DNA of 64,000 bases. Origin: Bacteroidota bacterium. GTDB lineage: Bacteria; Bacteroidota; Bacteroidia; Bacteroidales; VadinHA17. Below the pieces are notes generated by a model. It did no database searches, was not told the DNA's origin, and saw only the letters and a list, made by a program, of their open reading frames with translations. This document shows, in pieces, positions 8,684 through 64,000 of the stretch (positions are counted from its first letter, which is position 1; every line of letters begins with the position of its first letter). The position numbers and the translations under genes are program-made. Location: the NCBI GenBank assembly GCA_037127735.1, contig JBAXXU010000007.1, forward strand, positions 1,023-65,022, in the 5' to 3' direction.

Positions 8684-8718
8684 CTTTTGTCTTTTTCCTT
8701 TTGTCTTTTATCTTTTAT
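8684..8718 (-). repeat. heptanucleotide tract (GACAAAA/GATAAAA family) abutting the stop codon of the MFS gene
   Basis: Plus strand reads CTTTTGT CTTTTTC CTTTTGT CTTTTAT CTTTTAT in one register. On the gene's sense strand it follows the TGA directly. Confidence 0.8.
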
Positions 8719-12095: not shown

Positions 12096-12119
12096 TAAAA
12101 ATCCCCTGACCACCGGCAA

Positions 12120-12884: not shown

Positions 12885-12987
12885 TTTGCAGATTGATTTT
12901 TATTTCAGGTAAAAATAAGAATTTATTTTTGATGCATGAACTCACCATCTATCTCACACACTTATTATCTTTGCGTTTTAGTTTAAA

Positions 12988-13722: not shown

Positions 13723-13783
13723 TCGGAATTCAAACCAGTTTATTATCTTGTATCGCTAAATCAAAAAAAAACTCAGGAGAAAA

Positions 13784-14500
13784 TTGAAGAAAAAAATCAT
13801 CAATATCTTATTAGTACTTCTCTTTTTGCTGATCTCTGTCATTTCATTTGGGCAGAAACAGAAACCTAAAAATGAATCATGGTACGATGATAAGTTTTTC
13901 CACTTTGGATTCAGCCTGGGGTTAAATGTGATGGATTTTACTATTACTCCTTCACAGGCTTTTCTGGTTTCTGATTCTCTCTATCCTGAAGTGAGCATCC
14001 TCAATCCCGGGATCAATATTCAAATAGTTACAAACCTGAAATCAGGGAAATATTTTGATGTCAGGTTTCTTCCCGGTGTCTCTTTTGGTCAGAGAGTTAT
14101 CAGGTATTACAAAAACCAGGTTATCTATAACGATAGGCAAAGGCTCGAATCTTCATTTCTCGAGTTCCCGCTACTTCTTAAATATAAGGGAGACAGACTG
14201 AATAATGTCAGACCCTATGTAATCGGGGGGCTAAATTTCAGGTATGACCTTGCCGGGAAGAAAGAATTTGATGACCAAAAGCCTGTCTATATCAGACTAA
14301 AGCGCCCCGATCTTTATTATGAACTTGGAGCCGGGATGGATTTTTACCTTACATATTTTAAGCTTTCTATCGAGTTGAAGATGTCGAACGGGATTGGGAA
14401 TGTACTTGTTAAAGAAGCAGCTCCCGGGCATCCTGAATTTTACAATACCATTGAAAAGTTGAAATCGCAGATATGGGTACTGGCATTTCATTTTGAATAA
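13784..14500 (+). CDS. outer-membrane beta-barrel protein, PorT/SprT-like
   Basis: TTG start. Signal peptide, 238 aa, alternating beta-strand pattern ending ...WVLAFHFE. Lies directly downstream of ubiE, as I recall for porT/sprT. Confidence 0.5.
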   Translation: MKKKIINILLVLLFLLISVISFGQKQKPKNESWYDDKFFHFGFSLGLNVMDFTITPSQAFLVSDSLYPEVSILNPGINIQIVTNLKSGKYFDVRFLPGVSFGQRVIRYYKNQVIYNDRQRLESSFLEFPLLLKYKGDRLNNVRPYVIGGLNFRYDLAGKKEFDDQKPVYIRLKRPDLYYELGAGMDFYLTYFKLSIELKMSNGIGNVLVKEAAPGHPEFYNTIEKLKSQIWVLAFHFE

Positions 14501-23792: not shown

Positions 23793-23844
23793 CAAACTGT
23801 TTTTTGAGGGTGTATTGTGCTCTCGCGGGACGTTCTTTAAATTG

Positions 23845-23918
23845 CCGATGTAGCTCAGTTGGTCAGAGCAGCTGATTTGTAATCTGCAGGTCGGGGGTTC
23901 GAATCCCTTCATCGGCTC
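23845..23918 (+). tRNA. tRNA-Thr (anticodon TGT)
   Basis: Cloverleaf: GCCGATG/CATCGGC acceptor, GCTC..GAGC D-arm, anticodon loop TTTGTAA, TTCGAAT T-loop. One U-U mismatch in the anticodon stem. Confidence 0.85.
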
Positions 23919-23966
23919 TTGAAAGATTTGTTAATGTGTGTCTTAAGAGTAATACTCTGTTTGAAG

Positions 23967-24049
23967 GGGGAGATACCAAAGCGGCCAACTGGGGCAGACT
24001 GTAAATCTGCTGGCGAATGCCTTCGTAGGTTCGAATCCTGCTCTCCCCA
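23967..24049 (+). tRNA. tRNA-Tyr (anticodon GTA), long variable arm
   Basis: GGGGAGA/TCTCCCC acceptor, loop CTGTAAA. 83 nt. Confidence 0.88.
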
Positions 24050-24079
24050 CTTTTTTTACCTTCAGAAACAAAATCATAA

Positions 24080-24152
24080 GCGGGAGTAGCTCAGTTGATA
24101 GAGCATTAGCCTTCCAAGCTGAGGGTCGCGGGTTTGAGTCCCGTCTTTCGCT
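24080..24152 (+). tRNA. tRNA-Gly (anticodon TCC)
   Basis: GCGGGAG acceptor, loop CTTCCAA, TTTGAGT T-loop. Confidence 0.88.
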
Positions 24153-24200
24153 CAAAAAGGAGTATTATTGTCGGATAAAACTGATTTCGCTCCTTATATT

Positions 24201-24272
<72 letters not shown>

Positions 24273-24328
24273 CAACTTTGTAAGCTTTTATAAAACATAT
24301 AAATTAATTATTAAATAATCTTTGAGTT

Positions 24329-25516
24329 ATGGCAAAAGAAAAATTTGACAGGTCAAAACCCCACGTTAACGTAGGTACTATTGGACACGTTGACCACGGT
24401 AAAACTACCTTGACCGCTGCAATTACTATGGTACTTGCAAAAAAAGGACTTTCTGAAATGCGTTCATTCGATTCAATCGATAATGCACCAGAAGAAAAAG
24501 AACGTGGTATTACCATTAATACTGCCCACGTAGAATACCAAACAGCTAACCGTCACTACGCACACGTTGACTGTCCGGGTCACGCTGACTACGTTAAGAA
24601 CATGGTAACTGGTGCTGCTCAAATGGACGGTGCTATCATTGTAGTTGCTGCAACTGATGGTCCAATGCCACAAACACGCGAACACATCCTTCTAGCCCGT
24701 CAGGTAAACGTACCTCGTTTGGTTATATTTATGAACAAATGTGATATGGTTGATGATCCGGAAATGTTGGAATTAGTAGAAATGGAAATGCGCGAATTGC
24801 TTTCATTCTATGATTTCGATGGTGACAATACTCCTGTTATTCAGGGTTCTGCACTTGGTGGATTAAACGGAGTTCCAGAATGGGAAGATAAAATCATGGA
24901 ATTGATGGATGCAGTTGATAGCTGGATTTTATTGCCAGAACGCGCTGTTGACAAACCTTTCTTGATGCCGGTTGAAGATGTATTCTCTATCACAGGTCGT
25001 GGTACAGTTGCTACAGGTCGTATCGAAACAGGTAAAATCAAAACAGGTGAAGAAGTTCAAATCATTGGATTAGGTTCAAGTGCTCTTAAATCAGTTGTAA
25101 CTGGTGTTGAGATGTTCCGTAAGATTCTTGATGATGGACAAGCTGGTGATAACGTAGGTTTATTGCTTCGTGGTATCGACAAAGAAAGTATCAAACGTGG
25201 TATGGTTATTACCCACCCGGGAAAAGTAACTCCTCACACTACTTTCAAAGCTGCTGCGTATATCTTGAAAAAAGAAGAAGGTGGACGTCACACTCCATTC
25301 CACAACCGCTACCGTCCACAGTTCTATATCCGTACATTGGATGTAACAGGTGAAATCACTTTACCTGAAGGAACTGAAATGGTTATGCCGGGTGACAACT
25401 TAGAATTAACTGTAACTCTTATCTATCCTGTAGCTTGTAACGTAGGTTTACGTTTCGCTATCCGTGAAGGTGGTCGTACAGTAGGTTCAGGTCAGATTAC
25501 AGAATTGTTAGACTAA
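24329..25516 (+). CDS. tuf: elongation factor Tu
   Basis: [17 protein letters not shown] and NKCD. Confidence 0.98.
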
Positions 25517-25527
25517 TACCCCTTAAT

Positions 25528-25588
25528 CCCCTGAAGGGGAGATAAAGGAAATTTAATAACCCCCGGCTCCCCTTTAGGGGCTGGGGGT
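25528..25588 (+). terminator. two GC-rich hairpins between tuf and tRNA-Trp (no T-run)
   Basis: CCCCTGAAGGGG (25528-25539) and ACCCCCGGCTCCCCTTTAGGGGCTGGGGGT (25559-25588). Confidence 0.35.
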
Positions 25589-25593
25589 AACAC

Positions 25594-25666
25594 ACGGGCG
25601 TAGCTCAGTTGGTAGAGCACTGGTCTCCAAAACCAGGTGTCGGGAGTTCGAGTCTCTCCTCCCGTG
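25594..25666 (+). tRNA. tRNA-Trp (anticodon CCA)
   Basis: Loop CTCCAAA, TTCGAGT T-loop, G73 discriminator. The acceptor stem has one C6-U67 mismatch. Confidence 0.85.
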
Positions 25667-39055: not shown

Positions 39056-40039
39056 ATGAAAGCATTTCTTAATCTGATCAGGTGGCAAAATCTTCTCATG
39101 GTGATCTTTACTATGGGGCTGATGAGATATGCGGTAATTGGGCCGTTAATCGGCAAAATAGGTGTAACATTACTTAATGGAACGGGAAAAGAAATTCCGA
39201 TGGTTCTTCAGCTTCCCTGGTATGACTTTCTGTTACTCGTTGCTGCCACTGTCTTCTTAACCGCTGCCGGATATGTAATAAATGATTATTTTGATATTAA
39301 AACTGACCTTATAAACAAAGGGAAGGTTATTGTAGGAACAAAAATTCCGAGACGCCAGGCAATGATGTGGCACAGCATTTTTAATATCGCAGGCGTGTCA
39401 ATCGGTTTCTATATTTCATGGAAAGCAGGTTATATATGGTTGGGAGCTATGTTTCTTATCGTCTCCGGCTTGCTCTATTTTTATTCAGCAAGCTATAAAA
39501 GACAGTTCCTGATTGGTAATATAATCGTAGCCATACTGACAGCTATGGTTCCCCTCCTGGTTGTTTTTTACGAATGGCCGGCTTTATATAAATATTATAC
39601 GTTAAATACTCCAGCCCTTCCTGACATAAACTTTATTTTCTACTGGGTAACCGGATTTGCCCTTTTTGCCTTTCTTACAACTCTTACCCGTGAAATAATC
39701 AAGGACATCGAAGATTTTGAAGGTGATGTTGCCTATGGAAGAAATTCAGTTCCTGTTGTAATCGGGGTACTACCTGCCAAGGTATTTTCTGTTACTCTTT
39801 TAATTATTACTATTGCTTTGCTTTACATTATATGGTATTTTTTTATTAATGATATCATAACACTTGTTTACCTTTCTGCTGCTATTGCTTTGCCTCTTCT
39901 GTATGTCATTTATAAGGTGGCAATCAGCAAAAACAGGAAGCAACTTCATTGTGCAAGCAGAATAATGAAAATTGTAATGGTTACCGGTATCCTTTACTCT
40001 GTTGTGGTAAAAGTAATACTTACCTGGAACCTGTTCTGA
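39056..40039 (+). CDS. UbiA-family prenyltransferase
   Basis: NDYFDIKTD (NDxxDxxxD). Polytopic, 327 aa. Confidence 0.8.
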   Translation: MKAFLNLIRWQNLLMVIFTMGLMRYAVIGPLIGKIGVTLLNGTGKEIPMVLQLPWYDFLLLVAATVFLTAAGYVINDYFDIKTDLINKGKVIVGTKIPRRQAMMWHSIFNIAGVSIGFYISWKAGYIWLGAMFLIVSGLLYFYSASYKRQFLIGNIIVAILTAMVPLLVVFYEWPALYKYYTLNTPALPDINFIFYWVTGFALFAFLTTLTREIIKDIEDFEGDVAYGRNSVPVVIGVLPAKVFSVTLLIITIALLYIIWYFFINDIITLVYLSAAIALPLLYVIYKVAISKNRKQLHCASRIMKIVMVTGILYSVVVKVILTWNLF

Positions 40040-40632
40040 TGATGACTGTTGACAACCTGAATAAGTATAAGATTGTCCTTGCTTCGCGTTCACCCCGAAG
40101 ACAGCAATTACTCAGGGAACTGGGTCTGAAATTTGATGTTGTAATTAAAGATTATAAAGAAACATATCCGGAAGGCCTTGTCGGTGAGGATATTGTTAAA
40201 TATGTCGCTCACGAAAAAGCAATCTCTTTCAGAAACGAAATATCAGATAATGAGATTGTTATTACAGCAGATACTATTGTCTGGCATAACAGTAAAGTTC
40301 TTGGTAAACCTATTGATTGTGAAGATGCAGTACGCATACTTAAAGAAATTTCCGGTAACACTCATGAGGTTATCACAGGTGTCTGCCTCTATTCCACTTC
40401 AAAAGAAAAGATATTTTCCGTCTCAACAAAGGTTACTTTCGAAACCCTTTCCGGGGAAGAGATAAACTATTATGTTGATAAATACAAACCGTACGATAAA
40501 GCCGGCGCTTACGGCATACAGGAGTGGATTGGTATAATTGCCTGCAGCCATATTGAAGGATCATATTTCAATGTTGTTGGTTTGCCGGTGCAGAGACTCT
40601 ATAAGGAACTTCAGAACTTCATACTGGAATAA
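40039..40632 (+). CDS. maf: Maf-family nucleoside triphosphate pyrophosphatase
   Basis: ATG overlaps the upstream TGA (TGATG). LASRSPRRQQLL and AGAYGIQ motifs. Confidence 0.85.
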   Translation: MMTVDNLNKYKIVLASRSPRRQQLLRELGLKFDVVIKDYKETYPEGLVGEDIVKYVAHEKAISFRNEISDNEIVITADTIVWHNSKVLGKPIDCEDAVRILKEISGNTHEVITGVCLYSTSKEKIFSVSTKVTFETLSGEEINYYVDKYKPYDKAGAYGIQEWIGIIACSHIEGSYFNVVGLPVQRLYKELQNFILE

Positions 40633-40633
40633 A

Positions 40634-40675
40634 GACAAAAGATAAAAGACAAAAGATAAAAGGGAAAGGTTGGGG
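40634..40675 (+). repeat. heptanucleotide tract directly after the maf stop codon
   Basis: GACAAAA GATAAAA GACAAAA GATAAAA GGGAAAG GTTGGGG in one register. Confidence 0.8.
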
Positions 40676-42889: not shown

Positions 42890-42901
42890 ACTCTTTTACC
42901 G

Positions 42902-42945
42902 CGCCCTTCGCCCTTCACCCTCCGCCCCGGGCGAAAGGTTTTTTT
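42902..42945. terminator. hairpin plus T-run between convergent genes, with a stem built from heptamer units
   Basis: CGCCCTT CGCCCTT CACCCTC CGCCCCG, then GGGCGAAAGG pairing back onto CCCTTCGCCC, then TTTTTTT. Confidence 0.55.
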
Positions 42946-50825: not shown

Positions 50826-52787
50826 ATGTTGGTTTACACAATAAAAGAACTTTGCCGCACATGCTACACCTGCGTCAGGGAATGTCCTGCCAAAGCAATC
50901 CGTATTGTTGGTGGTCAGGCTGAGGTGATTGATGAAAGGTGCATTGCCTGCGGTAACTGTACAAAAGTATGCAGCCAGGGCGCCAAGGTCTTTCTGAACA
51001 CAACCGACAGGGTGGCGAAACTTCTCGAAAACGATTCGAAAGTTGCTGCTATTATTGCTCCGAGCTTTCCGGCAGAATTCTCTGATATACCCGATCACCA
51101 CGTTCTTACCGGAATGATAAAGTCACTTGGATTTGAATATGTTGCAGAGGTTGCTTTTGGCGCTGACCTTGTTGCTGACAAATATAAAAAACTTGTTTCG
51201 GAAGATAAAGATTTTTATATCTCATCTGATTGTCCTTCAATAGTTAATTACATAAAATTCTTTCACCCGGCTCTTGTCGCAAATCTGGCTCCCATAGTTT
51301 CTCCCATGGTGGCAATGAGCAGGGTTATTCGTGAAAAATACGGCAAGGATACAAGTATTGTTTTCATAGGCCCGTGTGTCGCGAAGAAAGCTGAAAGCGC
51401 TGAAATAGACGAGGCAATAACATTCACGGAATTGAGGGATATGTTTGCTGAAAGAGGTATCGCCCCGGAGAACAGTATACCGGTTGATTTTGACCAGCCT
51501 GTTGGCGGAAGAGGCGCCATATTCCCTGTTGCACGCGGATTGCTTCAGACCGCTAAAATCAGCGATAACGCTATTACCGGAAATATAATCGCGGCTGAAG
51601 GCAGGATTGATTTTCAGGGAGCACTGAAGGAATTTGAAGCAGGACTGATAAAAAACCAGCACATGGAACTGCTATGTTGCGAAGGCTGCATCATGGGGCC
51701 GGGATTATCGAAAAGCGGGAAGCAGTATAACAGACGCTCGCTCGTAAGCTCTTATGCCAACAGTAAGATGCAGAATATCGATTCTGACAGCTGGCAAAGA
51801 TCATTCGATGAATATGCTGAACTCGACTTATCGTTTCGTCATAAACCTGAAGATCACAGGATTGAATTGCTCGACGAAAATGATGTATCTGATGAACTGA
51901 GTAAGATGGGCAAGAAGACGAAGAAGGACCAGCTCGACTGTGGCGCCTGCGGTTACGAAAGTTGCGTGGAGCATGCAATAGCAATAAAGAAGGGCCTTGC
52001 CGAAGTGGAGATGTGTCTGCCATATACTATTGAAAAACTGCATAAATCAGTAAATGATCTTGCATTGTCAAACGAGAAACTATCCTCGATGAAGCAGGCT
52101 CTCAAACAATCGGAAAAGCTTGCTCACATGGGCCAGCTTTCAGCCGGTATTGCCCATGAATTGAATAATCCCCTTGGAGTTGTAATAATGTACAGCAACA
52201 TTCTTCTGGAAGAATCATCCGAGGGCGATCCTGTCAGGGAAGATCTTAAACTTATAGTCGAACAGGCAGGCAGATGCAAGAAAATTGTTGCCGGCTTGCT
52301 CAATTTTGCAAGGAAAAACCAGGTTAACCATCAACCGGTAAGTATAAAGGAACTTGTTAATCATAGTCTTGAAAGTCTTATAATTCCTGAAGAGATAAAA
52401 ATCAGTATATCTGATCTGACAACCAATCCGGAGGCAATGCTAGATGCGGAACAGATGATGCAGGTTCTTACCAACCTCGTGAAGAACGCTATTGACGCTA
52501 TGCCGGATGGGGGAGCCATAGATATTAAGCTTGAAGATACTCTCGGTGATGTTATTATTACGATAAGTGACACAGGGACAGGTATTAAGGAAGAAGACAG
52601 GGCTAAGATTTTCGAACCATTCTTTACCACTAAAAGCATTGGAAAAGGAACCGGACTGGGGCTCGCTACCGCGTATGGCGTAGTTAAAATGCATAAGGGA
52701 CAGATTATTGCTGAGTCAAACAACGATTTGGCCAAAGGGCCGACAGGGACAAGTTTTAAGATTATGTTACCAAGAAGAAAGGAATAG
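50826..52787 (+). CDS. hydS: sensory-type [FeFe]-hydrogenase domain fused directly to a histidine kinase
   Basis: CRTCYTCVRECP and CIACGNCTKVC. H-cluster motifs SSDCPS, GPCVAKKAE and LLCCEGCIMGPG. CGACGYESC...EMC. Then H-box AHELNNPL, N-box NLVKNAIDA, DTGTGI and GTGLGL. Confidence 0.8.
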   Translation: MLVYTIKELCRTCYTCVRECPAKAIRIVGGQAEVIDERCIACGNCTKVCSQGAKVFLNTTDRVAKLLENDSKVAAIIAPSFPAEFSDIPDHHVLTGMIKSLGFEYVAEVAFGADLVADKYKKLVSEDKDFYISSDCPSIVNYIKFFHPALVANLAPIVSPMVAMSRVIREKYGKDTSIVFIGPCVAKKAESAEIDEAITFTELRDMFAERGIAPENSIPVDFDQPVGGRGAIFPVARGLLQTAKISDNAITGNIIAAEGRIDFQGALKEFEAGLIKNQHMELLCCEGCIMGPGLSKSGKQYNRRSLVSSYANSKMQNIDSDSWQRSFDEYAELDLSFRHKPEDHRIELLDENDVSDELSKMGKKTKKDQLDCGACGYESCVEHAIAIKKGLAEVEMCLPYTIEKLHKSVNDLALSNEKLSSMKQALKQSEKLAHMGQLSAGIAHELNNPLGVVIMYSNILLEESSEGDPVREDLKLIVEQAGRCKKIVAGLLNFARKNQVNHQPVSIKELVNHSLESLIIPEEIKISISDLTTNPEAMLDAEQMMQVLTNLVKNAIDAMPDGGAIDIKLEDTLGDVIITISDTGTGIKEEDRAKIFEPFFTTKSIGKGTGLGLATAYGVVKMHKGQIIAESNNDLAKGPTGTSFKIMLPRRKE

Positions 52788-52826
52788 AGTGGGAGAAGGG
52801 GAGAGAGAGGGAATGGGAGAGTTGAA

Positions 52827-52868
52827 GACAAAAGATAAAAGTAAAAAGACAAAAGTAAGCAGTGAGCA
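52827..52868 (+). repeat. heptanucleotide tract downstream of the hydS-kinase gene
   Basis: GACAAAA GATAAAA GTAAAAA GACAAAA GTAAGCA GTGAGCA in one register, preceded by a purine-rich GGGAGA-type stretch. Confidence 0.75.
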
Positions 52869-52950: not shown

Positions 52951-53058
52951 ACTTTGTGAGCCTTTGTGTAACCCTTTGTGTAACCCTTTGTGCGACTTAG
53001 TGTTTAATATTTTTTTACCACGAAGGTACACAAAGTACATCACAAAGTAACACAAAGA
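52951..53058. repeat. CTTTGTG direct repeats mirrored by CACAAAG repeats (long imperfect palindrome)
   Basis: CTTTGTG at 52952, 52962, 52974 and 52986. CACAAAG at 53029, 53041 and 53051. AT/T-rich centre. Confidence 0.7.
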
Positions 53059-56302: not shown

Positions 56303-57727
56303 ATGAGGTTTACTCCTGAAAAACTGACCATCCCCGATCAACGGATGAAGCCATTCATTGATCCTGAAGAGATTTGGGGACTTATCAACAATACAAAGCC
56401 CGACAAACAGAGGGTGAGGGATGTCATTGCAAAATCGCTCGATAAACAAAGGCTCACGATGGAGGAGACTGCAGTTCTCGTGAATGTTGTCGGTACCGAC
56501 CTGGCTGATGAGATCAAACAGGGGGCCCGCGAACTGAAACAGAGAGTTTATGGTAACCGGATAGTGCTTTTTGCCCCGCTCTATGTAGGAAACAGGTGTA
56601 TAAATAACTGCAAATATTGCGGTTTCAGGACTTCAAATGCCGATGCTGTAAGGAAAACATTGAGCGACAATGAGATCATAAGCGAGGTGGAGGCACTGGA
56701 GGATAACGGACAAAAAAGGCTGATCCTTGTATATGGCGAACACCCCGATTACTCACCTGAATATATAGCCCATACAGTTAAGTTGGTGTATGGCGTCAAA
56801 AAGGGCCATGGCGAAATCAGAAGAGTAAATATCAATGCCGCACCACTCGACATTGAAGGTTTCAGAATTGTTGGCGAGTCAGGGATTGGCACCTACCAGG
56901 TCTTTCAGGAAACATACCACCCGGAGGCATATAAATGGTACCACCTGGGTGGGAAAAAGAAAGACTTTGAATGGCGACTGACATCGCTCGACAGAGCACA
57001 GGAAGCCGGAATTGATGATGTCGGAATCGGAGCCCTGTTCGGACTGTACGACTGGAGGTTTGAGGTACTGGGACTTGTTCGTCATACAAATCATCTTGAA
57101 GCATGTTATAATGTAGGCCCACATACTATATCTTTTCCGAGGATAAAAGATGCTGTAAGTCTGAACCTCGATAAGAAATTCGAGACAAGCGATGATGATT
57201 TTAAAAAACTTGTTGCTATCCTTCGTCTTGCTGTTCCATACACCGGATTGATCCTCACTGCACGTGAGACTCCCGATGTACGCCGGGAAGTATTGCAATT
57301 TGGTGTATCACAGATAGATGGTGGAACAAAACTTGAGCTTGGTTCTTATTCAGATTCAAAAAATGAAGAACAGAACCTTAACCGCGAGCAGTTTAAAATT
57401 AGCGATCCCCGTTCGCTGGCTGAAGTAATTGATGAGCTGCTCACGGACAATTATTTGCCATCATTTTGCACATCTTGCTACAGGATGGGACGCACCGGCG
57501 AACACTTCATGGAATTTTCAGTACCGGGTTTCATTAAAAGATTCTGCACACCCAATGCAATACTTACCCTTGCAGAATATATCTGCGACTATGGCCAGGG
57601 AGAGACTGTTAATAAGGGCTGGAAGGTAATTGTGAAGAACCTGGAAAAGCTCGAATCTGAAGTTGCCGTAAGTACCAGGGAAAAGATAGAAAGGATTAAG
57701 GCGGGGGAGAGAGACCTTTATTTTTGA
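56303..57727 (+). CDS. hydG: [FeFe]-hydrogenase H-cluster radical-SAM maturase HydG
   Basis: CINNCKYCGF (Cx3Cx2C) and the C-terminal auxiliary-cluster motif CTSCYRMGRTGEHFMEF...FCTPNA. Confidence 0.9.
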   Translation: MRFTPEKLTIPDQRMKPFIDPEEIWGLINNTKPDKQRVRDVIAKSLDKQRLTMEETAVLVNVVGTDLADEIKQGARELKQRVYGNRIVLFAPLYVGNRCINNCKYCGFRTSNADAVRKTLSDNEIISEVEALEDNGQKRLILVYGEHPDYSPEYIAHTVKLVYGVKKGHGEIRRVNINAAPLDIEGFRIVGESGIGTYQVFQETYHPEAYKWYHLGGKKKDFEWRLTSLDRAQEAGIDDVGIGALFGLYDWRFEVLGLVRHTNHLEACYNVGPHTISFPRIKDAVSLNLDKKFETSDDDFKKLVAILRLAVPYTGLILTARETPDVRREVLQFGVSQIDGGTKLELGSYSDSKNEEQNLNREQFKISDPRSLAEVIDELLTDNYLPSFCTSCYRMGRTGEHFMEFSVPGFIKRFCTPNAILTLAEYICDYGQGETVNKGWKVIVKNLEKLESEVAVSTREKIERIKAGERDLYF

Positions 57728-57825
57728 GGCGACAGGCGTAAGGCGTCAGGCGACAGTTTCAAATCCGAAATCCGAAATCCGAAATCCCCAGCCTGTAGCC
57801 CGTAGCCAGAGGCCTGTAGCCTTAT
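57728..57825 (+). repeat. 14-unit phase-locked heptanucleotide tract directly after the hydG stop
   Basis: GGCGACA GGCGTAA GGCGTCA GGCGACA GTTTCAA ATCCGAA x3 ATCCCCA GCCTGTA GCCCGTA GCCAGAG GCCTGTA, all in one 7-nt register. Confidence 0.9.
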
Positions 57826-57863
57826 TTTATGTTATAAAACAAATTATTCAATCTATAAGCATC

Positions 57864-58388
57864 ATGATAAAAGTACTTGGTATTAAAATTATCGACAGGA
57901 TAAAAGAAGCCGGTCTAACACAGGAGATATTGTCGCGGCATGCTACCGTAATAACTACCCGACTGGGTTTTCATGAAGTGACTGATTCAGTCTGCAGCCG
58001 TGAGGCATATATCATTCTTCATCTTAATGGCGATCCGGCTGATACAGATAGACTTTCATCAGCGCTGGAAGGGATTGGGGGTATTGAGATCCGCGGGATG
58101 TCCTTTCCTTCTGAAAAGGAAACCCTGAATTTAAAGACAGTTAATGGCAATGTGGAAATACTTGGTATTCTTGTTGAAAGAAACCACGATGTAATTGTTT
58201 TAGTTCAGAAAATCCTAACGGCTTATGGCTGTAATATCCGTACCCGTCTCGGTGTTAATGAGCTCTTCTTTGGCGAACCGGCAGGGCTGATCATTCTCGA
58301 ATTAAAGGGAGATGAAAAGCAGCGTCTTCTTCTTGAAAAGGAACTGAAGGGACTAAAACATGTGCATGTCAGGACGATGGTGTTTTAG
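57864..58388 (+). CDS. tandem-duplicated TM1266-type (iron-only hydrogenase system regulator, ACT/NikR-C-like) protein
   Basis: Two ~85-aa halves share a pattern: VLGIKIIDR...VITTRLGFHE...YIILHLNG versus ILGILVERN...NIRTRLGVNE...LIILELKG. Adjacent to hydG. Confidence 0.6.
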   Translation: MIKVLGIKIIDRIKEAGLTQEILSRHATVITTRLGFHEVTDSVCSREAYIILHLNGDPADTDRLSSALEGIGGIEIRGMSFPSEKETLNLKTVNGNVEILGILVERNHDVIVLVQKILTAYGCNIRTRLGVNELFFGEPAGLIILELKGDEKQRLLLEKELKGLKHVHVRTMVF

Positions 58389-58656
58389 ATCATAGAAAAA
58401 GGTTGGAAAGTCTCAACCGCACCCGAACCCCATAACGCCATAACGGTTTAAGACAAAAGTGATGATGTGATGATGAAAACCTCTGCTTCAATCGCGGCTT
58501 CATGTTGTTTGATACTTAACTTTTATTTTACAGTTCATTATATTTTGGTAATTTTGTACTATTAAGTCGGCGGTTTGGAACAATTGCCTCAAGCTGGGCA
58601 ACATTGATTGTTATATATATTCAAAAAATTGATTAACCTTTGGTGAAAATCAGGAT

Positions 58657-59055
58657 ATGACTGATAATGTTGATATAGATAAAATTTATAATCATTGGAT
58701 TAGTACATCTGATAAGGATCTTATTACAATGGTTCATCTTTATGATTCAAAAGATTATCATTGGTCATTATTTATTGGTCATGCTGTTGTTGAACGATTA
58801 TTAAAAGCTTCCGTTGTAAAACGAATTTCAGATCATGCTCCTTTTACGCATGACTTAACCAAATTAGCAAAACTTTCCGGATTGTTATTTTCTGAAGAGC
58901 AATTAGATTGGCTGGATACAATTTCAACTTTCAATATTAATGCAAGATACGATAGCTATAAAGAGGCATTTTACAGAAAATGTACTTTAGAGTTCACAAC
59001 GGAATGGATTGATAAAGTTAAAATTCTACAATCATGGATAAAGGAGAAGCTCTAA
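58657..59055 (+). CDS. HEPN-domain protein (toxin-like partner of the MNT gene)
   Basis: 132 aa helical protein with the HAPFTHDL region expected around the HEPN active site. Overlaps the next gene by 22 nt. Confidence 0.65.
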   Translation: MTDNVDIDKIYNHWISTSDKDLITMVHLYDSKDYHWSLFIGHAVVERLLKASVVKRISDHAPFTHDLTKLAKLSGLLFSEEQLDWLDTISTFNINARYDSYKEAFYRKCTLEFTTEWIDKVKILQSWIKEKL

Positions 59056-59351
59056 GAATAGCAGGGGATTATATTGATTCAATAAGCACAAAATATAATA
59101 TCAGACAGGCAATATTGTTTGGTTCTTTTGCAAAAGGTACCAATCATGATGATAGTGATATAGATATAGCGATAATAATTAATAATGTAGTTGATATTAT
59201 TGATACCCAAATAGATTTAATGAAACTTCGCAGGACAATTGATTTAAGAATAGAGCCCCATCCTTTTATGATTGGGGACTTTAATCAGAGCAACCCTGTT
59301 GTAAATGAAATATTAAAATACGGAATAGTAATAAATAGTAACGTGTCCTGA
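59034..59351 (+). CDS. minimal nucleotidyltransferase (MNT) domain protein
   Basis: GSFAKGTNHDDSDIDIAI (GSxxxGx5-6SDxDxx). Confidence 0.75.
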   Translation: MDKGEALRIAGDYIDSISTKYNIRQAILFGSFAKGTNHDDSDIDIAIIINNVVDIIDTQIDLMKLRRTIDLRIEPHPFMIGDFNQSNPVVNEILKYGIVINSNVS

Positions 59352-59370
59352 TCGAAAATCTTTGACAATA

Positions 59371-59412
59371 ACCCGCAGCCTCGCACCCAGAACCCAGAAC
59401 CCGGCACCACAT
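59371..59412 (+). repeat. heptanucleotide tract downstream of the MNT gene
   Basis: ACCCGCA GCCTCGC ACCCAGA ACCCAGA ACCCGGC ACCACAT in one register. Confidence 0.75.
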
Positions 59413-59433
59413 TATAGTTGTTGGTGATTTTTG

Positions 59434-59586
59434 CTATTTCCAATAATTTTCAACGGCATAAAGTGGCAAATTTGTTAACCAATCATCTCTTCTATAATCA
59501 GACATGGAGGTTCTTATAGATATCAATGGTTTACGGTCTTTTGAGTTTTTCCAATTAGTCAGTTTTTGAAATTGAAATCGTTCCAT
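59434..59586 (-). pseudogene. 50-codon remnant resembling the N-terminus of a COG1373/DUF4143 AAA ATPase
   Basis: MERFQFQKLTNWKNSKDRKPLISIRTS... The family pattern (L..W....RKPLIL.G.RQVGKT) is followed as far as RKPLI and then lost. Stop after 50 aa. Confidence 0.3.
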
Positions 59587-59937
59587 TGCGTTATTATTTT
59601 CCGCGAAGGTAAAAAAAATAGTTTGGTGTTTAACATTATTAATAACATTTATTCATACGACTATATGTTATGAAATACATTTATTCTAATTACTTAATGT
59701 AGATGAAATATTATTTATTATAGTAACCCTGATCATCTCACGGCCCCCTTCACCCGGCCTTTTACCCCCAGGCACCCGGCCCCCGGTAACGAATTTCAGT
59801 TTCTCAGGTTAAGACCGGCTTAACAGACTATAAAGACACTTCAGACAATAAAGAATTTTCACCACGTAAAAAAATCTTTATTAAATAAATCCGGAATAAT
59901 TGTTTTCTATTAGCAAACTATTATCTACTTTTGTCGG

Positions 59938-60255
59938 ATGTTTAATATTATTGCCCGAAAAACATTATTGGATTATTGTAAAACATATCCTTTGGCAGCG
60001 CCGGGATTGCAAGAGTGGTATCATGAGATGGTTCAAAGCGACTTTAAAAACTTTAACAAGCTGAAAATGGTATATGGCACTGCAAGCCTGGTTGCCGACG
60101 ACAGGGTGGTATTTAATATAATGGGAAACAAGTACAGATTGGTGGTGAGGATTGTATTTCAATTCAGGGCCATACAGATAAAGTGGTTTGGCACTCATGC
60201 AGAGTATGATGAAGTAGATGTGACAAGTACAAATTTTAAAAAGAAGAAATCATGA
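59938..60255 (+). CDS. higB: type II toxin HigB (RelE-fold mRNA interferase)
   Basis: VVFNIMGNKYRLVVRI...IKWFGTHAEYDEVDV, the characteristic HigB_toxin pattern. Confidence 0.85.
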   Translation: MFNIIARKTLLDYCKTYPLAAPGLQEWYHEMVQSDFKNFNKLKMVYGTASLVADDRVVFNIMGNKYRLVVRIVFQFRAIQIKWFGTHAEYDEVDVTSTNFKKKKS

Positions 60256-60608
60256 ATTTAAAAATCATAGTATCTAAAAAAGAATATCAGCAATACCTTA
60301 CCTGGGCTGATGAAATGTTTGATAAGAGAATATCACCGGAAACAGCTGAAGGAGAAAAGCTAAAGGTTGTGCTGTTATTAATTAAACAATATGAAGATCA
60401 GCACTATCCTGTTCCAAAACCAGATCCCATTGATGCCATAAAAAATAAAATGGTTGATTTAGGGCTTAAAAACAAATATTTTGTGGGTAAAGTAGGTTCT
60501 AAAGGATATGTATCGGCTATTTTGAATAAACGCAAACCACTTACGCTTCATCTTGCCAGGTTGTTTCATAATGAATTAGGAATCCCGGCTGATGTTTTAT
60601 TGTCATAG
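60252..60608 (+). CDS. higA: HigA-type HTH antitoxin
   Basis: 4-nt overlap with higB. ...YEDQHYPVPKPDPIDAIKNKM...ILNKRKPLTLHLARLFHNELGIPADVLL. Confidence 0.8.
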   Translation: MNLKIIVSKKEYQQYLTWADEMFDKRISPETAEGEKLKVVLLLIKQYEDQHYPVPKPDPIDAIKNKMVDLGLKNKYFVGKVGSKGYVSAILNKRKPLTLHLARLFHNELGIPADVLLS

Positions 60609-60624
60609 GATTTAAACTGTTTAA

Positions 60625-60750
60625 GACAAAAGACAAAAGACAAAAGACAAAAGACAAAAGACAAAAGACAAAAGACAAAAGTCACAAGAAAAAAGTAAAA
60701 ATGCAAAATGCAAAATGCGAAACGCGAAACGCGATACGCTGAACGCTGAA
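60625..60750 (+). repeat. 18-unit phase-locked heptanucleotide tract with stepwise unit drift
   Basis: GACAAAA x8, GTCACAA, GAAAAAA, GTAAAAA, TGCAAAA x2, TGCGAAA, CGCGAAA, CGCGATA, CGCTGAA x2. The register is unbroken. Confidence 0.92.
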
Positions 60751-60784
60751 CTCTTAGACCAAAAAGCTCCTTCAAATCGAAGAC

Positions 60785-61096
60785 CTACCTCTTTTTTGTC
60801 TTTTCAAACCATGATCCGGGATTGCGATATGTGCAGATTATAGCAAGAACTTTAATGGTTTCGGTTTGTTGTTCAACGCTATAGTGAATCATGTAAGGGA
60901 ATTTATTTATGATTGCTGTACGGATAGTTTTATATCGAACGGCATATCCTAAAGGATTCTTTTGTATGTTTTTGAGTGTTGTCCGAGTATATTTGTAAAA
61001 ACGAAATCCCAAATTCGGTTGTTGCTCATTGTACCAATCAATAGCCTGAATAATATCAATCCTTGCAGTGGGATTAATACTTATTTTATAAGCCAT
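60785..61096 (-). CDS. RelE/ParE-family toxin
   Basis: 103 aa. ...AIDWYNEQQPNLGFRF...FPYMIHYSVEQQTETIKVLAIICTYRNP. Confidence 0.75.
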   Translation of the reverse strand: MAYKISINPTARIDIIQAIDWYNEQQPNLGFRFYKYTRTTLKNIQKNPLGYAVRYKTIRTAIINKFPYMIHYSVEQQTETIKVLAIICTYRNPGSWFEKTKKR

Positions 61097-61307
61097 ATTT
61101 GGTATTTATTTCTTTTTGTACCTCATCCCAATTAAGGTAATCTTCGCTTTTATTTTCCAATCTTTGGTCAAGAATAGCTTTATGCCATTGAGGAATTTCG
61201 TTGGTATCGGAAACAGCTTCAATTTTTTTGACAAACGAAACACTTTTCATTAATTCAACGAAGATGTTTTCTTTATCGTCTTGTATTGTTATCGAAAATG
61301 TTTTCAT
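61086..61307 (-). CDS. antitoxin (addiction-module component) paired with the RelE/ParE toxin
   Basis: 73 aa, overlaps the toxin start by 11 nt. IPQWHKAILDQRLE...NWDEVQKEI pattern. Confidence 0.6.
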   Translation of the reverse strand: MKTFSITIQDDKENIFVELMKSVSFVKKIEAVSDTNEIPQWHKAILDQRLENKSEDYLNWDEVQKEINTKYGL

Positions 61308-61562
61308 CCGACCTTAAATTATATTTGTTTATAATGCAAATATACAATCAAAAGGGGAAAGAAGGTGTTGATATTAGAAATATTAACGCGCTACTTTTTT
61401 ATTCTCGCCATGCTGCACGGGAAGTTATTTTTACAGCACCAACAACTTACTGAGTGAAAAGTGAAAAGCCGGGATCGTAAGACGTATTACAGGTTGCAAA
61501 ATGGTGTGGTATTATCAACACGTCGCAGAGCGCAGTTTCTTCTACTCTGAGCCCTCCGCCCT

Positions 61563-61604
61563 GCGGACTGCCGATGCGAAGGTTAGGTTTAATTGGCTGC
61601 GCCG
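61563..61604 (+). repeat. direct repeat copy A flanking the DUF4160/DUF2442 pair
   Basis: GCGGAC[TGCCGAT]GCGAAGGTTAGGTTTAATTGGCTGCGCCG. A 29-nt core is identical to 62230..62258. Copy B lacks the 7-nt bracketed block. Confidence 0.85.
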
Positions 61605-61670
61605 AGTTCGTAAACGTAGAATTTTCGAGTGTTTTATATAAAAGTTTCTCACCTTTATTTATATTTGTAA

Positions 61671-62003
61671 ATGAGTCCAACAGTTTTGAAATATAAAGGA
61701 TATCGATTATTCTTTTTTTCATCCGTGCAAAATTATTTTTAATAGGTCGGATGGAGCTCGCATGTTGATTTTGTTCAGGCAGGTTAGTGTTTTTTGTTAA
61801 ACATGCTCGGTTCAAGAGAAGAAAAAAGAGTTCATATCCATGTTTCATCTCAAGATGGGGAGGCAAAATTCTGGGTTGAACCAGAAGTCGAATTAGCTCA
61901 GAATACCGGCTTCACTGAAAAACAATTGAATGCCATAAGAAACATTATACTAATACATTAAAATGAAATCACCGATGCATGGGTTAAGCACTTTAACAGT
62001 TGA
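61671..62003 (+). pseudogene. DUF4160-family gene disrupted by a 93-bp in-frame block with stops and by an in-frame TAA
   Basis: MSPTVLKYKGYRLFFFS (61671-61721), then a 93-nt block with TAA/TAG/TAG (61722-61814), then REEKRVHIHVSSQDGEAKFWVEPEVELAQNTGFTEKQLNAIRNIILIH, then TAA (61959), then NEITDAWVKHFNS*. All parts are in one frame. Confidence 0.6.
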
Positions 62004-62223
62004 GGTTACGAATATTTCTGCTCATGGTTTTTGGATCCTTTTGAACGAAAATGAGTATTTTCTGTCTTATTTAAATTTTCCATGGTTTACAAAAGCAACC
62101 ATCGATGATCTCTGTGAAGTTCATTTACTTAATGGGCAACACTTATTTTGGAAAAAGCTGGATGTCGATTTAGAACTCTCTTCAATTATCACCCCTGAAA
62201 GTTATCCCTTAATCTATAAGTAG
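61963..62223 (+). CDS. DUF2442-domain protein
   Basis: Usual partner of DUF4160 genes. ...VEVTNISAHGFWILLNENEYFLSYLNFPWF... Confidence 0.65.
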   Translation: MKSPMHGLSTLTVEVTNISAHGFWILLNENEYFLSYLNFPWFTKATIDDLCEVHLLNGQHLFWKKLDVDLELSSIITPESYPLIYK

Positions 62224-62258
62224 GCGGACGCGAAGGTTAGGTTTAATTGGCTGCGCCG
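62224..62258 (+). repeat. direct repeat copy B, starting immediately after the DUF2442 stop
   Basis: GCGGACGCGAAGGTTAGGTTTAATTGGCTGCGCCG. Confidence 0.85.
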
Positions 62259-62509
62259 GGCTCTCCGCCAACTGCCGGATCGGTTCACCGGTGCTTCCAC
62301 CGTTTTTTGAGTCCAGAGCCAGCTCTGGGGTTCATACCATTTGATTATTTGTTACACTGACATTTTATATTATAACGACCAAATAGCATTACTTTAAGTC
62401 ATTACGATATCAATTTGTCTTCCTTAAAGCTTGTGTACTCAGATAACACCAGGTTTTCCCGTGAAAACTATCGAGTAAACTCCGCGAAGACACCCATCGA
62501 AGCGTTAGC

Positions 62510-62544
62510 GACAAAAGTAAAAACGCAAAACGCAAAACGCTATA
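62510..62544 (+). repeat. heptanucleotide tract upstream of hicB, with the same unit progression as 60674..60736
   Basis: GACAAAA GTAAAAA CGCAAAA CGCAAAA CGCTATA. Confidence 0.75.
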
Positions 62545-62623
62545 ACAGTAAAAAAATCTTCCAAAAATCATATTCCCTTTAAATAATCTTATATTTGTAA
62601 GTAATCTTTTAAAACGCTTAGCT

Positions 62624-62851
62624 ATGAACAAGATGGAATTAACATTGATGGTTGAAGAGGGAGAGAATGGCTATTATGTTGGTCAGATAGTTGAGTATCC
62701 TGCTGCACTATCGCAGGGAAAAACTATAGAAGAATTGGAAAATAATTTAAAGGATGCTCTTAAATTGCTATTACAAGTACAAAAAGAACAACTGAAAAGG
62801 GAATATCTTAAACGAAAAGCCATAAAGCGAAAAGTGACATTTGCTGTATGA
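62624..62851 (+). CDS. hicB: HicB-family antitoxin
   Basis: ELTLMVEEGENGYYVGQIVEYPAALSQGKTIEELENNLKDAL (UPF0150/HicB N-domain pattern). Confidence 0.75.
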   Translation: MNKMELTLMVEEGENGYYVGQIVEYPAALSQGKTIEELENNLKDALKLLLQVQKEQLKREYLKRKAIKRKVTFAV

Positions 62852-63042
62852 AACGTTTAGATTTCAAAAGACATTTAAATCAGAATTCGTGTATATTACT
62901 GAGAGAAGGAGGAAGCCATTCCATTTGGATAAATACAACTAACGAAATGCATACATCCGTTCCACGGCATAAAGAAATTGATAACAGGTTGTGTAAGAAT
63001 ATCTGTAAACAATTAGGAATCATACCACCTGAAAATATTTAA
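62848..63042 (+). CDS. hicA: HicA-family toxin
   Basis: 4-nt overlap with hicB. REGGSHSIW...SVPRHKEI...ICKQLGI. Confidence 0.78.
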   Translation: MKRLDFKRHLNQNSCILLREGGSHSIWINTTNEMHTSVPRHKEIDNRLCKNICKQLGIIPPENI

Positions 63043-63164
63043 TTCTAAACTTATGCCATCATCATTTAGCCTGAATATGAATATTGAAGGGTTGATTGGC
63101 TATAACTTTTCCTATCACTCTTAGATGTTTTGCGGTTTTTCTTCTCCTTATCTTCTTGCATTCA

Positions 63165-63241
63165 CTTTTGTCTTTTCCCTTTTATCTTGATTTTGCCCTG
63201 CGCTCTGAGCTCTGCGCCCTCCGCCCTCCGCTCTGCGCCCA
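63165..63241 (+). repeat. 11-unit phase-locked heptanucleotide tract (T-rich units drifting into C-rich units)
   Basis: CTTTTGT CTTTTCC CTTTTAT CTTGATT TTGCCCT GCGCTCT GAGCTCT GCGCCCT CCGCCCT CCGCTCT GCGCCCA. Confidence 0.88.
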
Positions 63242-63384
63242 AAGCAGTAAGTGGGAATCGATCATAAGCGGCAAAAACTTCATAAATAAAATTCCGGTAA
63301 CACACGAATAAAATATTTATTGAACAATAGTTTGATAAAATTGATAAATATTCTACTTTTAAAGGTCTAAATAAATGTAAAAAT

Positions 63385-64000
63385 ATGGCACGACCACCTT
63401 CTACTAAAAGCGCGACCAAGCCTGTGGGCAAAGTAAGGAAAAAAGCACAAAAGAAACCACCCATAATATTGCCTCCTGTCATTGTAAAAACAAATTATTT
63501 TCAAAAGAAATATTTATATGGAGTTTCAGCCGTAGTACTGTTAATCGTATTCATCTTATTAATTCGCTTTTGTAATAAAGAAAAGCCGGCGCTACCGGTT
63601 CTGAAAACACAAGCTGTGACTGAAATTTTGTCTGAAACAGCTGCTTCAGGAGGCGATATAACAAGCAATGGCGGAGCGCCCGTAGTTTCAAGAGGCGTCT
63701 GCTGGAATACATCGGCCAGCCCGACTGTCGCGAACAATAAGACAGTTGATAGTGTTGGATCAGGCCCTTTTATCAGCCTGATTACCGGACTTACCCCAAA
63801 TACCATATATTTAGTAAGAGCCTATGCTACAAATAGCGCCGGTACAAGTTATGGCAATCAGGTACTATTTACTACCGGCAAGAGTGTAGTTCCTGATCTG
63901 ACACAGAAAACAACCGGTAAGGCTGAAGTTCCTGATCTGACACAGAAAACAACCGGTAAGGGTGAAGTTCCTGTTTTGACACAGAAAACAACCGGTAAGG
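63385..64000 (+). CDS. N-terminally anchored surface protein with an Fn3-like domain and 13-aa tandem repeats; 3' end outside the window (absent from the ORF track)
   Basis: ATG at 63385 with no stop through base 64000 (205 codons). Basic tail MARPPSTKSATKPVGKVRKKAQKK, TM helix YLYGVSAVVLLIVFILLIRF, and the domain ITSNGGAPVVSRGVCWNTSASPT...IYLVRAYATNSAGTSYGNQVLFTT. Repeats VPDLTQKTTGK[AG]E follow. Confidence 0.7.
   Translation, partial: MARPPSTKSATKPVGKVRKKAQKKPPIILPPVIVKTNYFQKKYLYGVSAVVLLIVFILLIRFCNKEKPALPVLKTQAVTEILSETAASGGDITSNGGAPVVSRGVCWNTSASPTVANNKTVDSVGSGPFISLITGLTPNTIYLVRAYATNSAGTSYGNQVLFTTGKSVVPDLTQKTTGKAEVPDLTQKTTGKGEVPVLTQKTTGK
63889..64000 (+). repeat. 39-bp coding tandem repeat, at least 2.8 copies, running off the window
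   Basis: GTTCCTGATCTGACACAGAAAACAACCGGTAAGGCTGAA starts at 63889, 63928 and 63967, with 2-4 substitutions per copy. Confidence 0.9.

Follow-up and report, generated by a model that had tools for sequence, protein, structure and literature searches.

A phase-locked, drifting heptanucleotide array between two converging toxin-antitoxin gene pairs of a Bacteroidales bacterium

A 64,000-nt stretch of DNA from a Bacteroidota bacterium (Bacteroidales, VadinHA17; assembly GCA_037127735.1, contig JBAXXU010000007.1, positions 1,023 to 65,022) contains, at positions 60625-60750, a tract of 126 nt composed of 18 head-to-tail 7-nt units, in which the sequence of the unit changes step by step and the register is kept without a single insertion or deletion. 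In the following, this whole stretch is referred to as the window, and the positions of the tract are counted in it. The tract is intergenic: two toxin-antitoxin gene pairs converge on the 3′ spacer that holds it, and it starts 17 nt past the stop codon of the upstream open reading frame (ORF) and ends 34 nt short of the stop codon of the converging gene. The genes and the parts of the tract are the following.

59938-60255, plus strand: higB toxin gene (Pfam HigB_toxin, E 8e-27)
60252-60608, plus strand: 118-aa ORF with a 4-nt overlap with higB, called an antitoxin ('higA') from its position only
60615-60632, plus strand: left junction AACTGTTTAAGACAAAAG, one copy of an 18-nt direct repeat (repeat family D9, 94%)
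60625-60680, plus strand: homogeneous core (GACAAAA)8, from the sequence and Tandem Repeats Finder (TRF); short-read contigs break inside it, and it is absent from the strain variant L088 (see below)
60681-60701, plus strand: transition units GTCACAA, GAAAAAA and GTAAAAA, holding every mismatch and the one gap between the window and L088 over the 566 nt that match
60702-60750, plus strand: degenerate distal half, TGCAAAA x2 to CGCTGAA x2, register kept, identical in L088
60785-61096, minus strand: converging ParE/RelE-type toxin gene (ParE_toxin, E 2.7e-5)
61086-61307, minus strand: putative antitoxin of the ParE-like toxin (Unstab_antitox, E 8e-4, under the Pfam cut-off)

The sequence of the tract reads exactly as listed in a preliminary description of this DNA, namely GACAAAA x8, GTCACAA, GAAAAAA, GTAAAAA, TGCAAAA x2, TGCGAAA, CGCGAAA, CGCGATA and CGCTGAA x2, in an unbroken 7-nt register. 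TRF reports overlapping period-7 arrays at 60623-60751, with a top score of 125. The identity between bases 7 nt apart (lag-7 identity) is 0.87, as compared with 0.27-0.45 at lags 4-6 and 8-11, and was matched by none of 2000 shuffles. The separation of two units correlates with their Hamming distance (0.56; a value as high was reached in none of 5000 permutations), the mean distance being 0.88 for adjacent units, as against 2.29 when their order is permuted, and 3.3 at a separation of 12 units. Adjacent units differ by 0-3 bases, rather than by 1-2 as originally described.

The only ORF across the tract, a minus-strand frame of 69 aa made of FCLLSFV repeats, had been regarded as an artefact, and this view is confirmed: the frame is generated by the repeat itself and overlaps the 3′ end of the upstream gene, so that a coding tract was rejected. 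The plus strand is open in all frames through the core only because GACAAAA contains no stop codon. Two of the seven unit columns are invariant along the tract, with about 14 changes, but by a rough estimate, not computed with a tool, this is not significantly above chance, and invariant columns were discarded as a sign of selection. A structured RNA or a terminator at 60605-60800 was rejected as well: folding of the tract RNA gave no significant structure on either strand (z-scores -0.98 and -0.31), no terminator-like site was found in 60609-60784, and Rfam returned only tRNAs in the whole window at the gathering threshold and nothing at E<=1 in 57500-64000. The sole Rfam matches in the window are a cluster of five tRNA genes at 23844-25666.

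As regards the neighbouring genes, the name higA given to the upstream ORF in the preliminary description reflects only its position after a gene matching Pfam HigB_toxin, as the 118-aa product (60252-60608) matches no Pfam or NCBIfam model. From 58.4 kb on, the region is occupied by a run of toxin-antitoxin modules comprising HEPN/MNT, higBA, parE-like, DUF2442, hicAB, yafQ and a second higBA. The 18-nt direct repeat AAC[G/T]GTTTAAGACAAAAG, present at 58442-58459 and 60615-60632, flanks the 2.2-kb block formed by HEPN/MNT and the first higBA. All genes are simple longest-ORF calls, in which stop codons are exact and start codons are not.

It should be noted that the preliminary description had left room for an assembly artefact. 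The HydG of the host is at most 89% identical to that of metagenome-assembled genomes (MAGs) of Bacteroidales from peat, soil and sediment. An identical tract is present on two long contigs of different assemblies, L081 (GCA_964470955.1) and L085 (ERZ4223250 NODE_291). Five short-read contigs of other assemblies also enter it, three from the left, i.e. the higA side (L082-84), and two from the right (L086-87), and all five end within the GACAAAA run. Because independent contigs of several assemblies agree, reading in from both sides, the tract is real and an artefact is ruled out; the exact copy number of eight in the core depends on the two long assemblies. L081 itself ends within a (GGTTCAG)18+ array (16615-16743), about 150 nt past the second higBA pair and beyond the right end of the window, and 1 kb upstream, at 15480-15559, it carries a composite of (TTCAGGG)6, then CAGGGCG, then CTTCCGA. 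Since the short-read contigs and L081 all end in heptamer arrays, the copy numbers of long arrays are uncertain, and heptamer arrays limit assembly contiguity in this genome.

A strain variant of the locus is found on contig L088 (ERZ27313424), which matches the window from 61242 down to 60677, over 566 nt. All four mismatches and the one gap fall within the three transition units; no difference from the window is seen in the distal half (TGCAAAA to CGCTGAA) or in the adjoining 490 nt or so. L088 is without the (GACAAAA)8 core, and its upstream flank is different. This flank contains ATAACGGTTT, as does the window at 58438, which suggests a strain that lacks the HEPN/MNT and higBA block.

In the metagenomes of the Joint Genome Institute (JGI), the right-flank pattern of the tract locus gave no matches. 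A scan of the same metagenomes for (GACAAAA)4 or longer found such arrays on at least 120 contigs, with GC contents of 27-59% (metagenome loci L089-L168). Among the matches listed, the arrays are mostly intergenic and drift into GATAAAA, GTAAAAA and GGCAAAA. Locus L092 (GACAAAA x5, GTCACAA, GATAAAA) repeats the step from GACAAAA to GTCACAA seen in the tract. Two loci from different metagenomes, L120 and L146, share 99.7% identity over 3.4 kb, with exactly one GACAAAA unit more in one than in the other. In another pair, L150 and L157, the flanks are 95% identical and the arrays are unlike in length and in block-wise unit variants; in both, the GACAAAA-type array adjoins a TAACTGA-type array. 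The polarity of degeneration along the (GACAAAA)n arrays is weak (37:22, p 0.013, among the matches listed) and is probably a by-product of gene-end anchoring.

A comparison of orthologous loci, as had been advised at the outset, revealed that unit number and sequence differ and that arrays may be absent. The spacer between hydG and the TM1266 gene measures 15 nt, without a repeat, in some species, and up to about 190 nt in others, where it contains unrelated heptamers (CGCTGGA, GGTGCTT, GACGGAA and GGCGACA). Similarly, in metagenome locus L126 an ortholog (79% aa identity) of the window gene 4097-5467 is followed by (GACAAAA)7, and the window has no array there. Orthologous sites thus show no conservation of the arrays. 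In L126, the gene that comes after the array (10038-10055) begins with ATGAAGACAAAAGACAGA (MKTKDR…), which is unit-like, and the end of the ParE-like gene next to the tract, GAAAAGACAAAAAAGAGGTAG (…EKTKKR*; 60785-60805, minus strand), resembles the repeat unit; Lys-rich coding termini could seed or absorb such arrays.

The tract is not alone in the window. With a period-7 tract defined by at least 12 of 14 lag-7 matches, and with dinucleotide-preserving shuffles as controls, the window contains 11 such tracts where 0.3 are expected (about 35x), which is the kind of excess that the preliminary description had proposed to look for genome-wide. No other period approaches this excess, apart from the multiples 14 and 21, and periods 7, 14 and 21 account for 11 of the 19 tandem arrays found by TRF. 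There are ten lag-7 loci in all, including the tract. Nine of the other sites listed originally are significant at lag 7 (2472, 8684, 40634, 42902, 52827, 57728, 59371, 62510 and 63165); of the remaining ones, 58417 is of period 8 and 2507-2545 of period 6, and 59744 is marginal (129 of 2000 shuffles). The other arrays are the following.

2472-2506, plus strand: TTTTGTC/TTTTGAC/TTTTATC array, 6 nt past the stop codon of gene 1501-2466, with the period-6 array next to it
8680-8719, minus strand: AAAAGNN-family array directly past the stop codon of a minus-strand gene (TRF, lag-7 test)
40631-40665, plus strand: AAAAGNN-family array, AAAGACA/AAAGATA alternating, from the stop codon of gene 40039-40632
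42901-42930, plus strand: CGCCCTT-type heptamers between converging genes, inside a terminator-like hairpin (TRF, lag-7 test)
52825-52860, plus strand: AAAAGNN-family array, 38 nt past the stop codon of gene 50826-52787 (TRF, lag-7 test)
57727-57824, plus strand: 14 in-phase heptamers from the hydG stop codon, (AGGCGAC)4, (AATCCGA)4 and (AGCCTGT)5
59371-59410, plus strand: CCCAGAA-type heptamers, 20 nt past the stop codon of the MNT gene (TRF, lag-7 test)
62510-62544, plus strand: small drifting array GACAAAA, GTAAAAA, CGCAAAA x2, CGCTATA, on the same trajectory as the tract
63161-63244, plus strand: composite of opposite orientation, TTTTGTC-type units drifting into CGCTCTG/CGCCCTC

The AAAAGNN family, to which the tract and several of these arrays belong, is represented by 24 matches to AAAAGNNAAAAG at about nine sites of the window, as against 0.86 expected, and is almost absent from other species of the lineage.

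Repeats of other kinds were also observed in the window. The period-8 array extends over 58417-58478. A 40-nt element with the core GCGAAGGTTAGGTTTAATTGGCTGCGCC is present in copies of 90% identity at 61545-61609, 62224-62263 and 63196-63236, one of them directly past the stop codon of the DUF2442 gene and upstream of a terminator-like hairpin; the element gave no Rfam match and has a GC-rich 27-mer in common with the heptamer array at 63.2 kb. A 12-nt unit, CCTTTGTGTAAC, occurs in 2.7 direct and then about 2.7 inverted copies (52961-52992 and 53028-53057) upstream of the response-regulator gene at 53125, and could be a regulator-binding array or a hairpin. Finally, a gene with a Fib_succ_major domain contains 39-nt in-frame tandem repeats (13 aa) at 63874-64000, which continue in L081 at 13707-13847.

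For a survey of the lineage, 80 loci around hydG from other Bacteroidales species (1.24 Mb) were examined. Periods 7, 14 and 21 make up 71 of about 190 TRF arrays, and periods 8, 10, 11 and 12 are also present. There are 65 period-7 tracts, compared with 6.4 in shuffles, and 60 of the 76 merged period-7 tracts are intergenic, even though about 88% of the DNA is coding and only about 12% non-coding. Many arrays are composites that drift as the tract does, for example those at L013 656-808, L008 2704-2829, L060 229-334 and L081 15480-15559. Period-8 arrays are the second commonest class in the relatives (19 tracts vs 0.8 in shuffles; L003, L008, L009, L017, L061, L065 and others), and with the period-8 array of the window they indicate that the preference for period 7, though strong, is not exclusive.

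The period-7 signal is confined to such arrays. When TRF arrays were masked, the lag-7 identity of the 139 kb of intergenic DNA from the relatives was 0.2835, compared with 0.2882 at lag 6 and 0.2881 at lag 8, and the intergenic DNA of the window likewise had no lag-7 excess over lags 6 or 8. The signal therefore consists of discrete arrays and is not a pervasive periodicity, which was rejected for the window and for the relatives alike. This speaks against general selection on 7-nt or 21-bp spacing, an idea put forward for intergenic DNA in the preliminary description, which thus found no support.

Some arrays form paired structures. At 57727-57824, the arms (AGGCGAC)4 and (AGCCTGT)5 pair around (AATCCGA)4, and a U-rich run is next (dG -35.9, z -3.15). 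The same fold is found in the orthologous spacers L013 2298-2440, L015 5203-5290 and L021 3001-3100, and in the unrelated spacer L008 4600-4680. These hairpins consist of 6-bp helices with one mismatch every 7 nt (z -2.7 to -8.1), each starting at a stop codon and leading into a U-rich run. In the predicted folds they look like terminators or 3′ stabilizers made of tandem heptamers, and a mismatch every 7 nt would be expected if the arms were homogenized internally by slippage while diverging from each other. On a tree of HydG, the species that bear (AGGCGAC)n at the hydG stop codon occupy scattered positions. The original remark that there is no inverted symmetry is hence correct for the tract at 60625 but not for the one at 57728, a long hairpin; in the same way, the G+C-rich stem-loop typical of an intrinsic terminator (with a U-run after it) or of a 3′ hairpin resembling a repetitive extragenic palindrome was not found at the tract but is present in the separate array 57727-57824.

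The arrays are linked with the 3′ ends of genes, and the link is real, as it comprises both stop-codon anchoring and a sense-strand bias. Within 10 nt of a period-7 tract lie 21 of 53 flanking stop ends, but only 5 of 58 start ends. Of the arrays in co-directional gaps, 21 are closer to the stop codon and 8 to the start codon (p 0.024). In 21 of 25 tracts, purines make up more than 50% of the sense strand of the gene that ends there, as compared with a baseline of 55% (p 0.004). Among the listed matches to (GACAAAA)n, the flanking genes are co-oriented with the A-rich strand in a ratio of 71:31 (p 9e-5), the median distance from the upstream stop codon to the array is 17 nt (with an overlap in 12 of 40), and that from the end of the array to the following start codon is 101 nt.

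In 33 of the 42 loci whose flanking genes all point the same way, the GC skew matches gene orientation; the nine discordant ones divide 7:2, a non-significant and underpowered result. As the replication and transcription strands are confounded in this way, the causes of the orientation bias are inseparable here. One possible cause of the regularities is purifying selection, merely restricting the sites and orientations in which arrays persist; others are a replication-strand bias and a real role at the transcript level. In the window, the cumulative GC skew has its minimum at about 12000-14000, where gene orientation changes from predominantly minus to predominantly plus; the site is possibly a replication origin or the boundary of a rearrangement, which bears on how the orientation of the arrays is read.

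How, then, might the tract have arisen? The account that we favour, and regard as moderately probable, is that it is a non-coding array of the simple sequence repeat (SSR) type, with a heptanucleotide unit, made and still remodelled by slippage or by microhomology-mediated tandem duplication. Every unit retains an A-run (AAAA or AAA, often with a G after it), which would provide 3-5 nt of microhomology in each 7 nt. With microhomology at this spacing, misalignment would always be by whole units, so that the A-run would act as the keeper of the register, which would never be lost, and the remaining positions of the unit would be free to mutate. A mutated unit could be duplicated only beside itself; neighbours would consequently be alike, and similarity would fall with distance, which would produce the stepwise drift. 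The core of eight GACAAAA units, adjacent to the upstream ORF, would be recent, and presumably the youngest and slippage-active part of the tract, and the half from TGCAAAA to CGCTGAA (60702-60750) is probably older and made of decayed units. The array sits at a strain-variable junction, in the 3′ spacer of converging toxin-antitoxin modules, where it disrupts nothing essential, and would have no dedicated function.

Microhomology-mediated tandem duplication has been proposed as an origin of tandem repeats (bioRxiv 10.64898/2026.02.28.708716). In-register duplication and deletion combined with point mutation agrees with that model and, as far as the latter is summarized in PMC4679880, with the slippage proposal of Mrazek. 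The preliminary description had suggested templated slippage as one possible cause. Its slippage part is supported by the single-unit polymorphism of GACAAAA between the near-identical loci L120 and L146, by the strain differences at the edge of the core, by the isolation by distance among units and by the lack of conservation at orthologous sites; nothing points to an external template.

Several points weigh against this account. The full-length copies of the tract all belong to one strain and all have eight units, so that there is no copy-number polymorphism at the tract locus itself. Slippage alone gives no account of the preference for 7 nt, nor does it explain why AAAAGNN recurs at about nine unlinked sites of the window and is rare in other species of the lineage, why arrays are placed so close to stop codons (21/53 vs 5/58), or why the sense strand is purine-rich (21/25, and 71:31 for the listed (GACAAAA)n arrays). 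These regularities of position, strand and unit family leave room for selection, or for a strand-specific process, on top of slippage.

It is possible, if unlikely, that the array is instead a functional element of transcripts, i.e. an unstructured, purine-rich 3′ untranslated region (3′-UTR) or intercistronic spacer, for which slippage supplied only the raw material. Such an element might be a platform for a single-strand-binding protein with an oligonucleotide-binding (OB) fold, of the S1 or Csp type and covering about 7 nt, or might insulate the transcript from termination or RNA decay. The co-orientation of the A-rich strand with the flanking genes (71 of 102 in the listed (GACAAAA)n matches), the purine-rich sense strand of the stop-adjacent tracts and the start of arrays at, or a few nt past, stop codons are all consistent with it, as are the recurrence of a unit family within one genome, the spread of (GACAAAA)n over at least 120 metagenome contigs and the predicted lack of structure in A-rich arrays. 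Moreover, CspB binds heptamer repeats, one protein per heptamer, according to a passage cited in PMC4679880, and regulatory effects have been reported for Nostoc heptamers. On the other hand, such a role is hard to reconcile with arrays that are absent at the orthologous sites of relatives and vary freely in copy number and unit sequence, and with a tract that drifts into quite different, GC-rich units; two arrays of the window (2472 and 63161) are oppositely oriented, the orientation bias is confounded with the replication strand, and the gene calls are crude, ORF-based ones.

A broader and more doubtful conjecture is that stop-anchored, sense-purine heptamer arrays are, with (GACAAAA)n as a widespread and undescribed family, a selected transcript-level device of Bacteroidota and other uncultured bacteria; they could serve as a 3′-UTR or intercistronic platform along which an abundant single-strand-binding protein advances by 7 nt at a time. 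If this were true, the GC-rich paired hairpin arrays would be the structured counterpart of the device, and a protein footprint, rather than polymerase slippage alone, would underlie the 'prime-number periodicity' of bacterial intergenic DNA.

We consider it improbable that the array is a DNA recombination or junction site through which toxin-antitoxin cassettes are exchanged in a variable island, in the manner of cassette boundary repeats. The homology between the window and L088 does stop exactly at the edge of (GACAAAA)8, with a different flank upstream; an 18-nt direct repeat that includes the first unit flanks the HEPN/MNT and higBA block; half of the heptamer loci of the window lie in its last 6.3 kb, between toxin-antitoxin modules; and the second higBA pair is followed by (GGTTCAG)18+. 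Yet similar arrays occur between housekeeping genes, such as hydG-TM1266 and at 40631, L088 is not a clean empty site, and the tract has no inverted symmetry or attC-like structure. No recombinase is linked to the tract, although no integrase search was made, and breakpoints at hypervariable repeats, as well as short contigs ending in repeats, are expected in any case.

A DNA structural or protein-binding element, in which A4 tracts spaced by 7 bp (three per two helical turns) might shape the duplex or bind a nucleoid or regulatory protein, is very unlikely. The core does contain A-runs regularly every 7 bp, and heptads that recruit a regulator are known, such as TTTTGAT in the ctxAB promoter of Vibrio cholerae, but the argument of 21 bp as two turns in the preliminary description is an inference only, the tract is placed where two genes converge with their 3′ ends and not in a promoter, its A-run erodes along the tract, TRF finds no 21-nt superperiod, no pervasive period-7 signal remains after masking, and very different arrays (GC-rich, or of period 8) occupy the equivalent positions in relatives. 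Last, a collapsed, expanded or chimeric assembly, to which the breaks of short-read contigs inside the GACAAAA run and the end of the MAG contig L081 in another heptamer array might point, is scarcely conceivable in view of the same tract on two long contigs of different assemblies, the agreement of other contigs on flanks and units at both sides, a core of 56 nt that is shorter than a typical read, and kindred arrays on at least 120 metagenome contigs.

The favoured origin by slippage or tandem duplication has a parallel in the variant-repeat interspersion of eukaryotic mini- and microsatellites, where in-register blocks of variant units, most alike between neighbours, arise by local duplication and point mutation. 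This pattern accounts for what was called drift in the tract. It differs in that the organisms and their replication and repair machinery are other ones, and that the tract is much shorter.

The preliminary description had named the short tandemly repeated repetitive (STRR) sequences of cyanobacteria as the closest analogy. These are defined by their unit sequences and by their occurrence in heterocystous cyanobacteria, and their function is unknown; the units that Mazel and co-workers described in 1990 are said to be CCCCAGT (STRR1), TTGGTCA (STRR2) and CAACAGT (STRR3). The analogy is right in kind, since in both cases a genome contains a few heptamer families, each amplified as tandem arrays at many places in its non-coding DNA. 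It does not extend to membership: none of the three units occurs in tandem within the window, the phylum is different, and the closest genomes to the host are Bacteroidales MAGs (HydG 89% identity). The tract is therefore an analogue of STRR sequences and not one of them.

Phase-variable SSRs with 7-nt units are described for the hmw1A/hmw2A promoters of Haemophilus influenzae, for neuO and, as TTTTGAT heptads, for ctxAB of V. cholerae. They share with the class of the tract the length of the unit and a copy number changed by slippage. Such contingency repeats, however, sit in promoters or reading frames and switch or tune genes, whereas the tract lies between two 3′ ends, touches neither a promoter nor an ORF, and has no gene placed for switching. 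Nor does it resemble attC sites, as it has no inverted symmetry; no integrase search was made.

Comparable, too, are the TAACTGA repeats and 'larger assemblages of heptamer repeats' found in intergenic DNA of Beggiatoaceae, Cyanobacteria and five Bacteroidetes (MacGregor 2015, PMC4679880). Those assemblages are missing from the same spacers of close relatives, and contigs end in them (PMC4679880). The arrays analysed here have the same properties, i.e. composite spacers with several heptamers, contigs ending in repeats and absence in relatives. They differ in position: the TAACTGA sets of the BOGUAY Beggiatoaceae genome lie mostly just upstream of start codons, and the arrays studied here mostly just past stop codons. 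The tract is likewise not a TAACTGA repeat, as the window contains 14 single TAACTGA and no tandem pair, and as it lies between two stop codons and not, forward-oriented, a few nt ahead of a start codon.

Among long SSRs with units of 5-11 nt, the heptanucleotide class is the commonest, and polymerase slippage has been proposed for it (Mrazek, Guo & Shah 2007, in the summary given in PMC4679880); a later survey reports that tandem heptamers outnumber all other intergenic repeats across prokaryotes (Mori et al. 2018, bioRxiv 10.1101/309039). The tract belongs to these prokaryotic intergenic heptanucleotide SSRs, of which it is an ordinary though well-preserved example. As in the repeats described there, the unit is 7 nt long, arranged head to tail beyond chance, mostly in non-coding DNA and at several loci of a genome, and slippage is the proposed cause. 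Variation by whole units was seen elsewhere, in the one-unit difference between L120 and L146; the tract locus has a single variant, L088, which is core-less and has a different flank.

What is new here is the lineage and the GACAAAA/AAAAGNN unit family: this uncultured Bacteroidales lineage and this family are outside the coverage of the Mrazek and Mori surveys, a tandem GACAAAA in this sense was found in no open-access paper, and (GACAAAA)n is widespread. The locus adds no new principle, but is a worked example of how a phase-locked drifting array can arise and illustrates a period-7 signal confined to discrete arrays, which mark strain-variable junctions and break short-read MAG assemblies. 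Stop-codon anchoring, the purine bias of the sense strand and hairpins formed by paired arrays are features of the arrays studied here that are unreported in what was read of the two surveys, and these, together with the spread of (GACAAAA)n and the periodic mismatches of the hairpins, offer testable handles on why the unit measures 7 nt and on any role that it may have.

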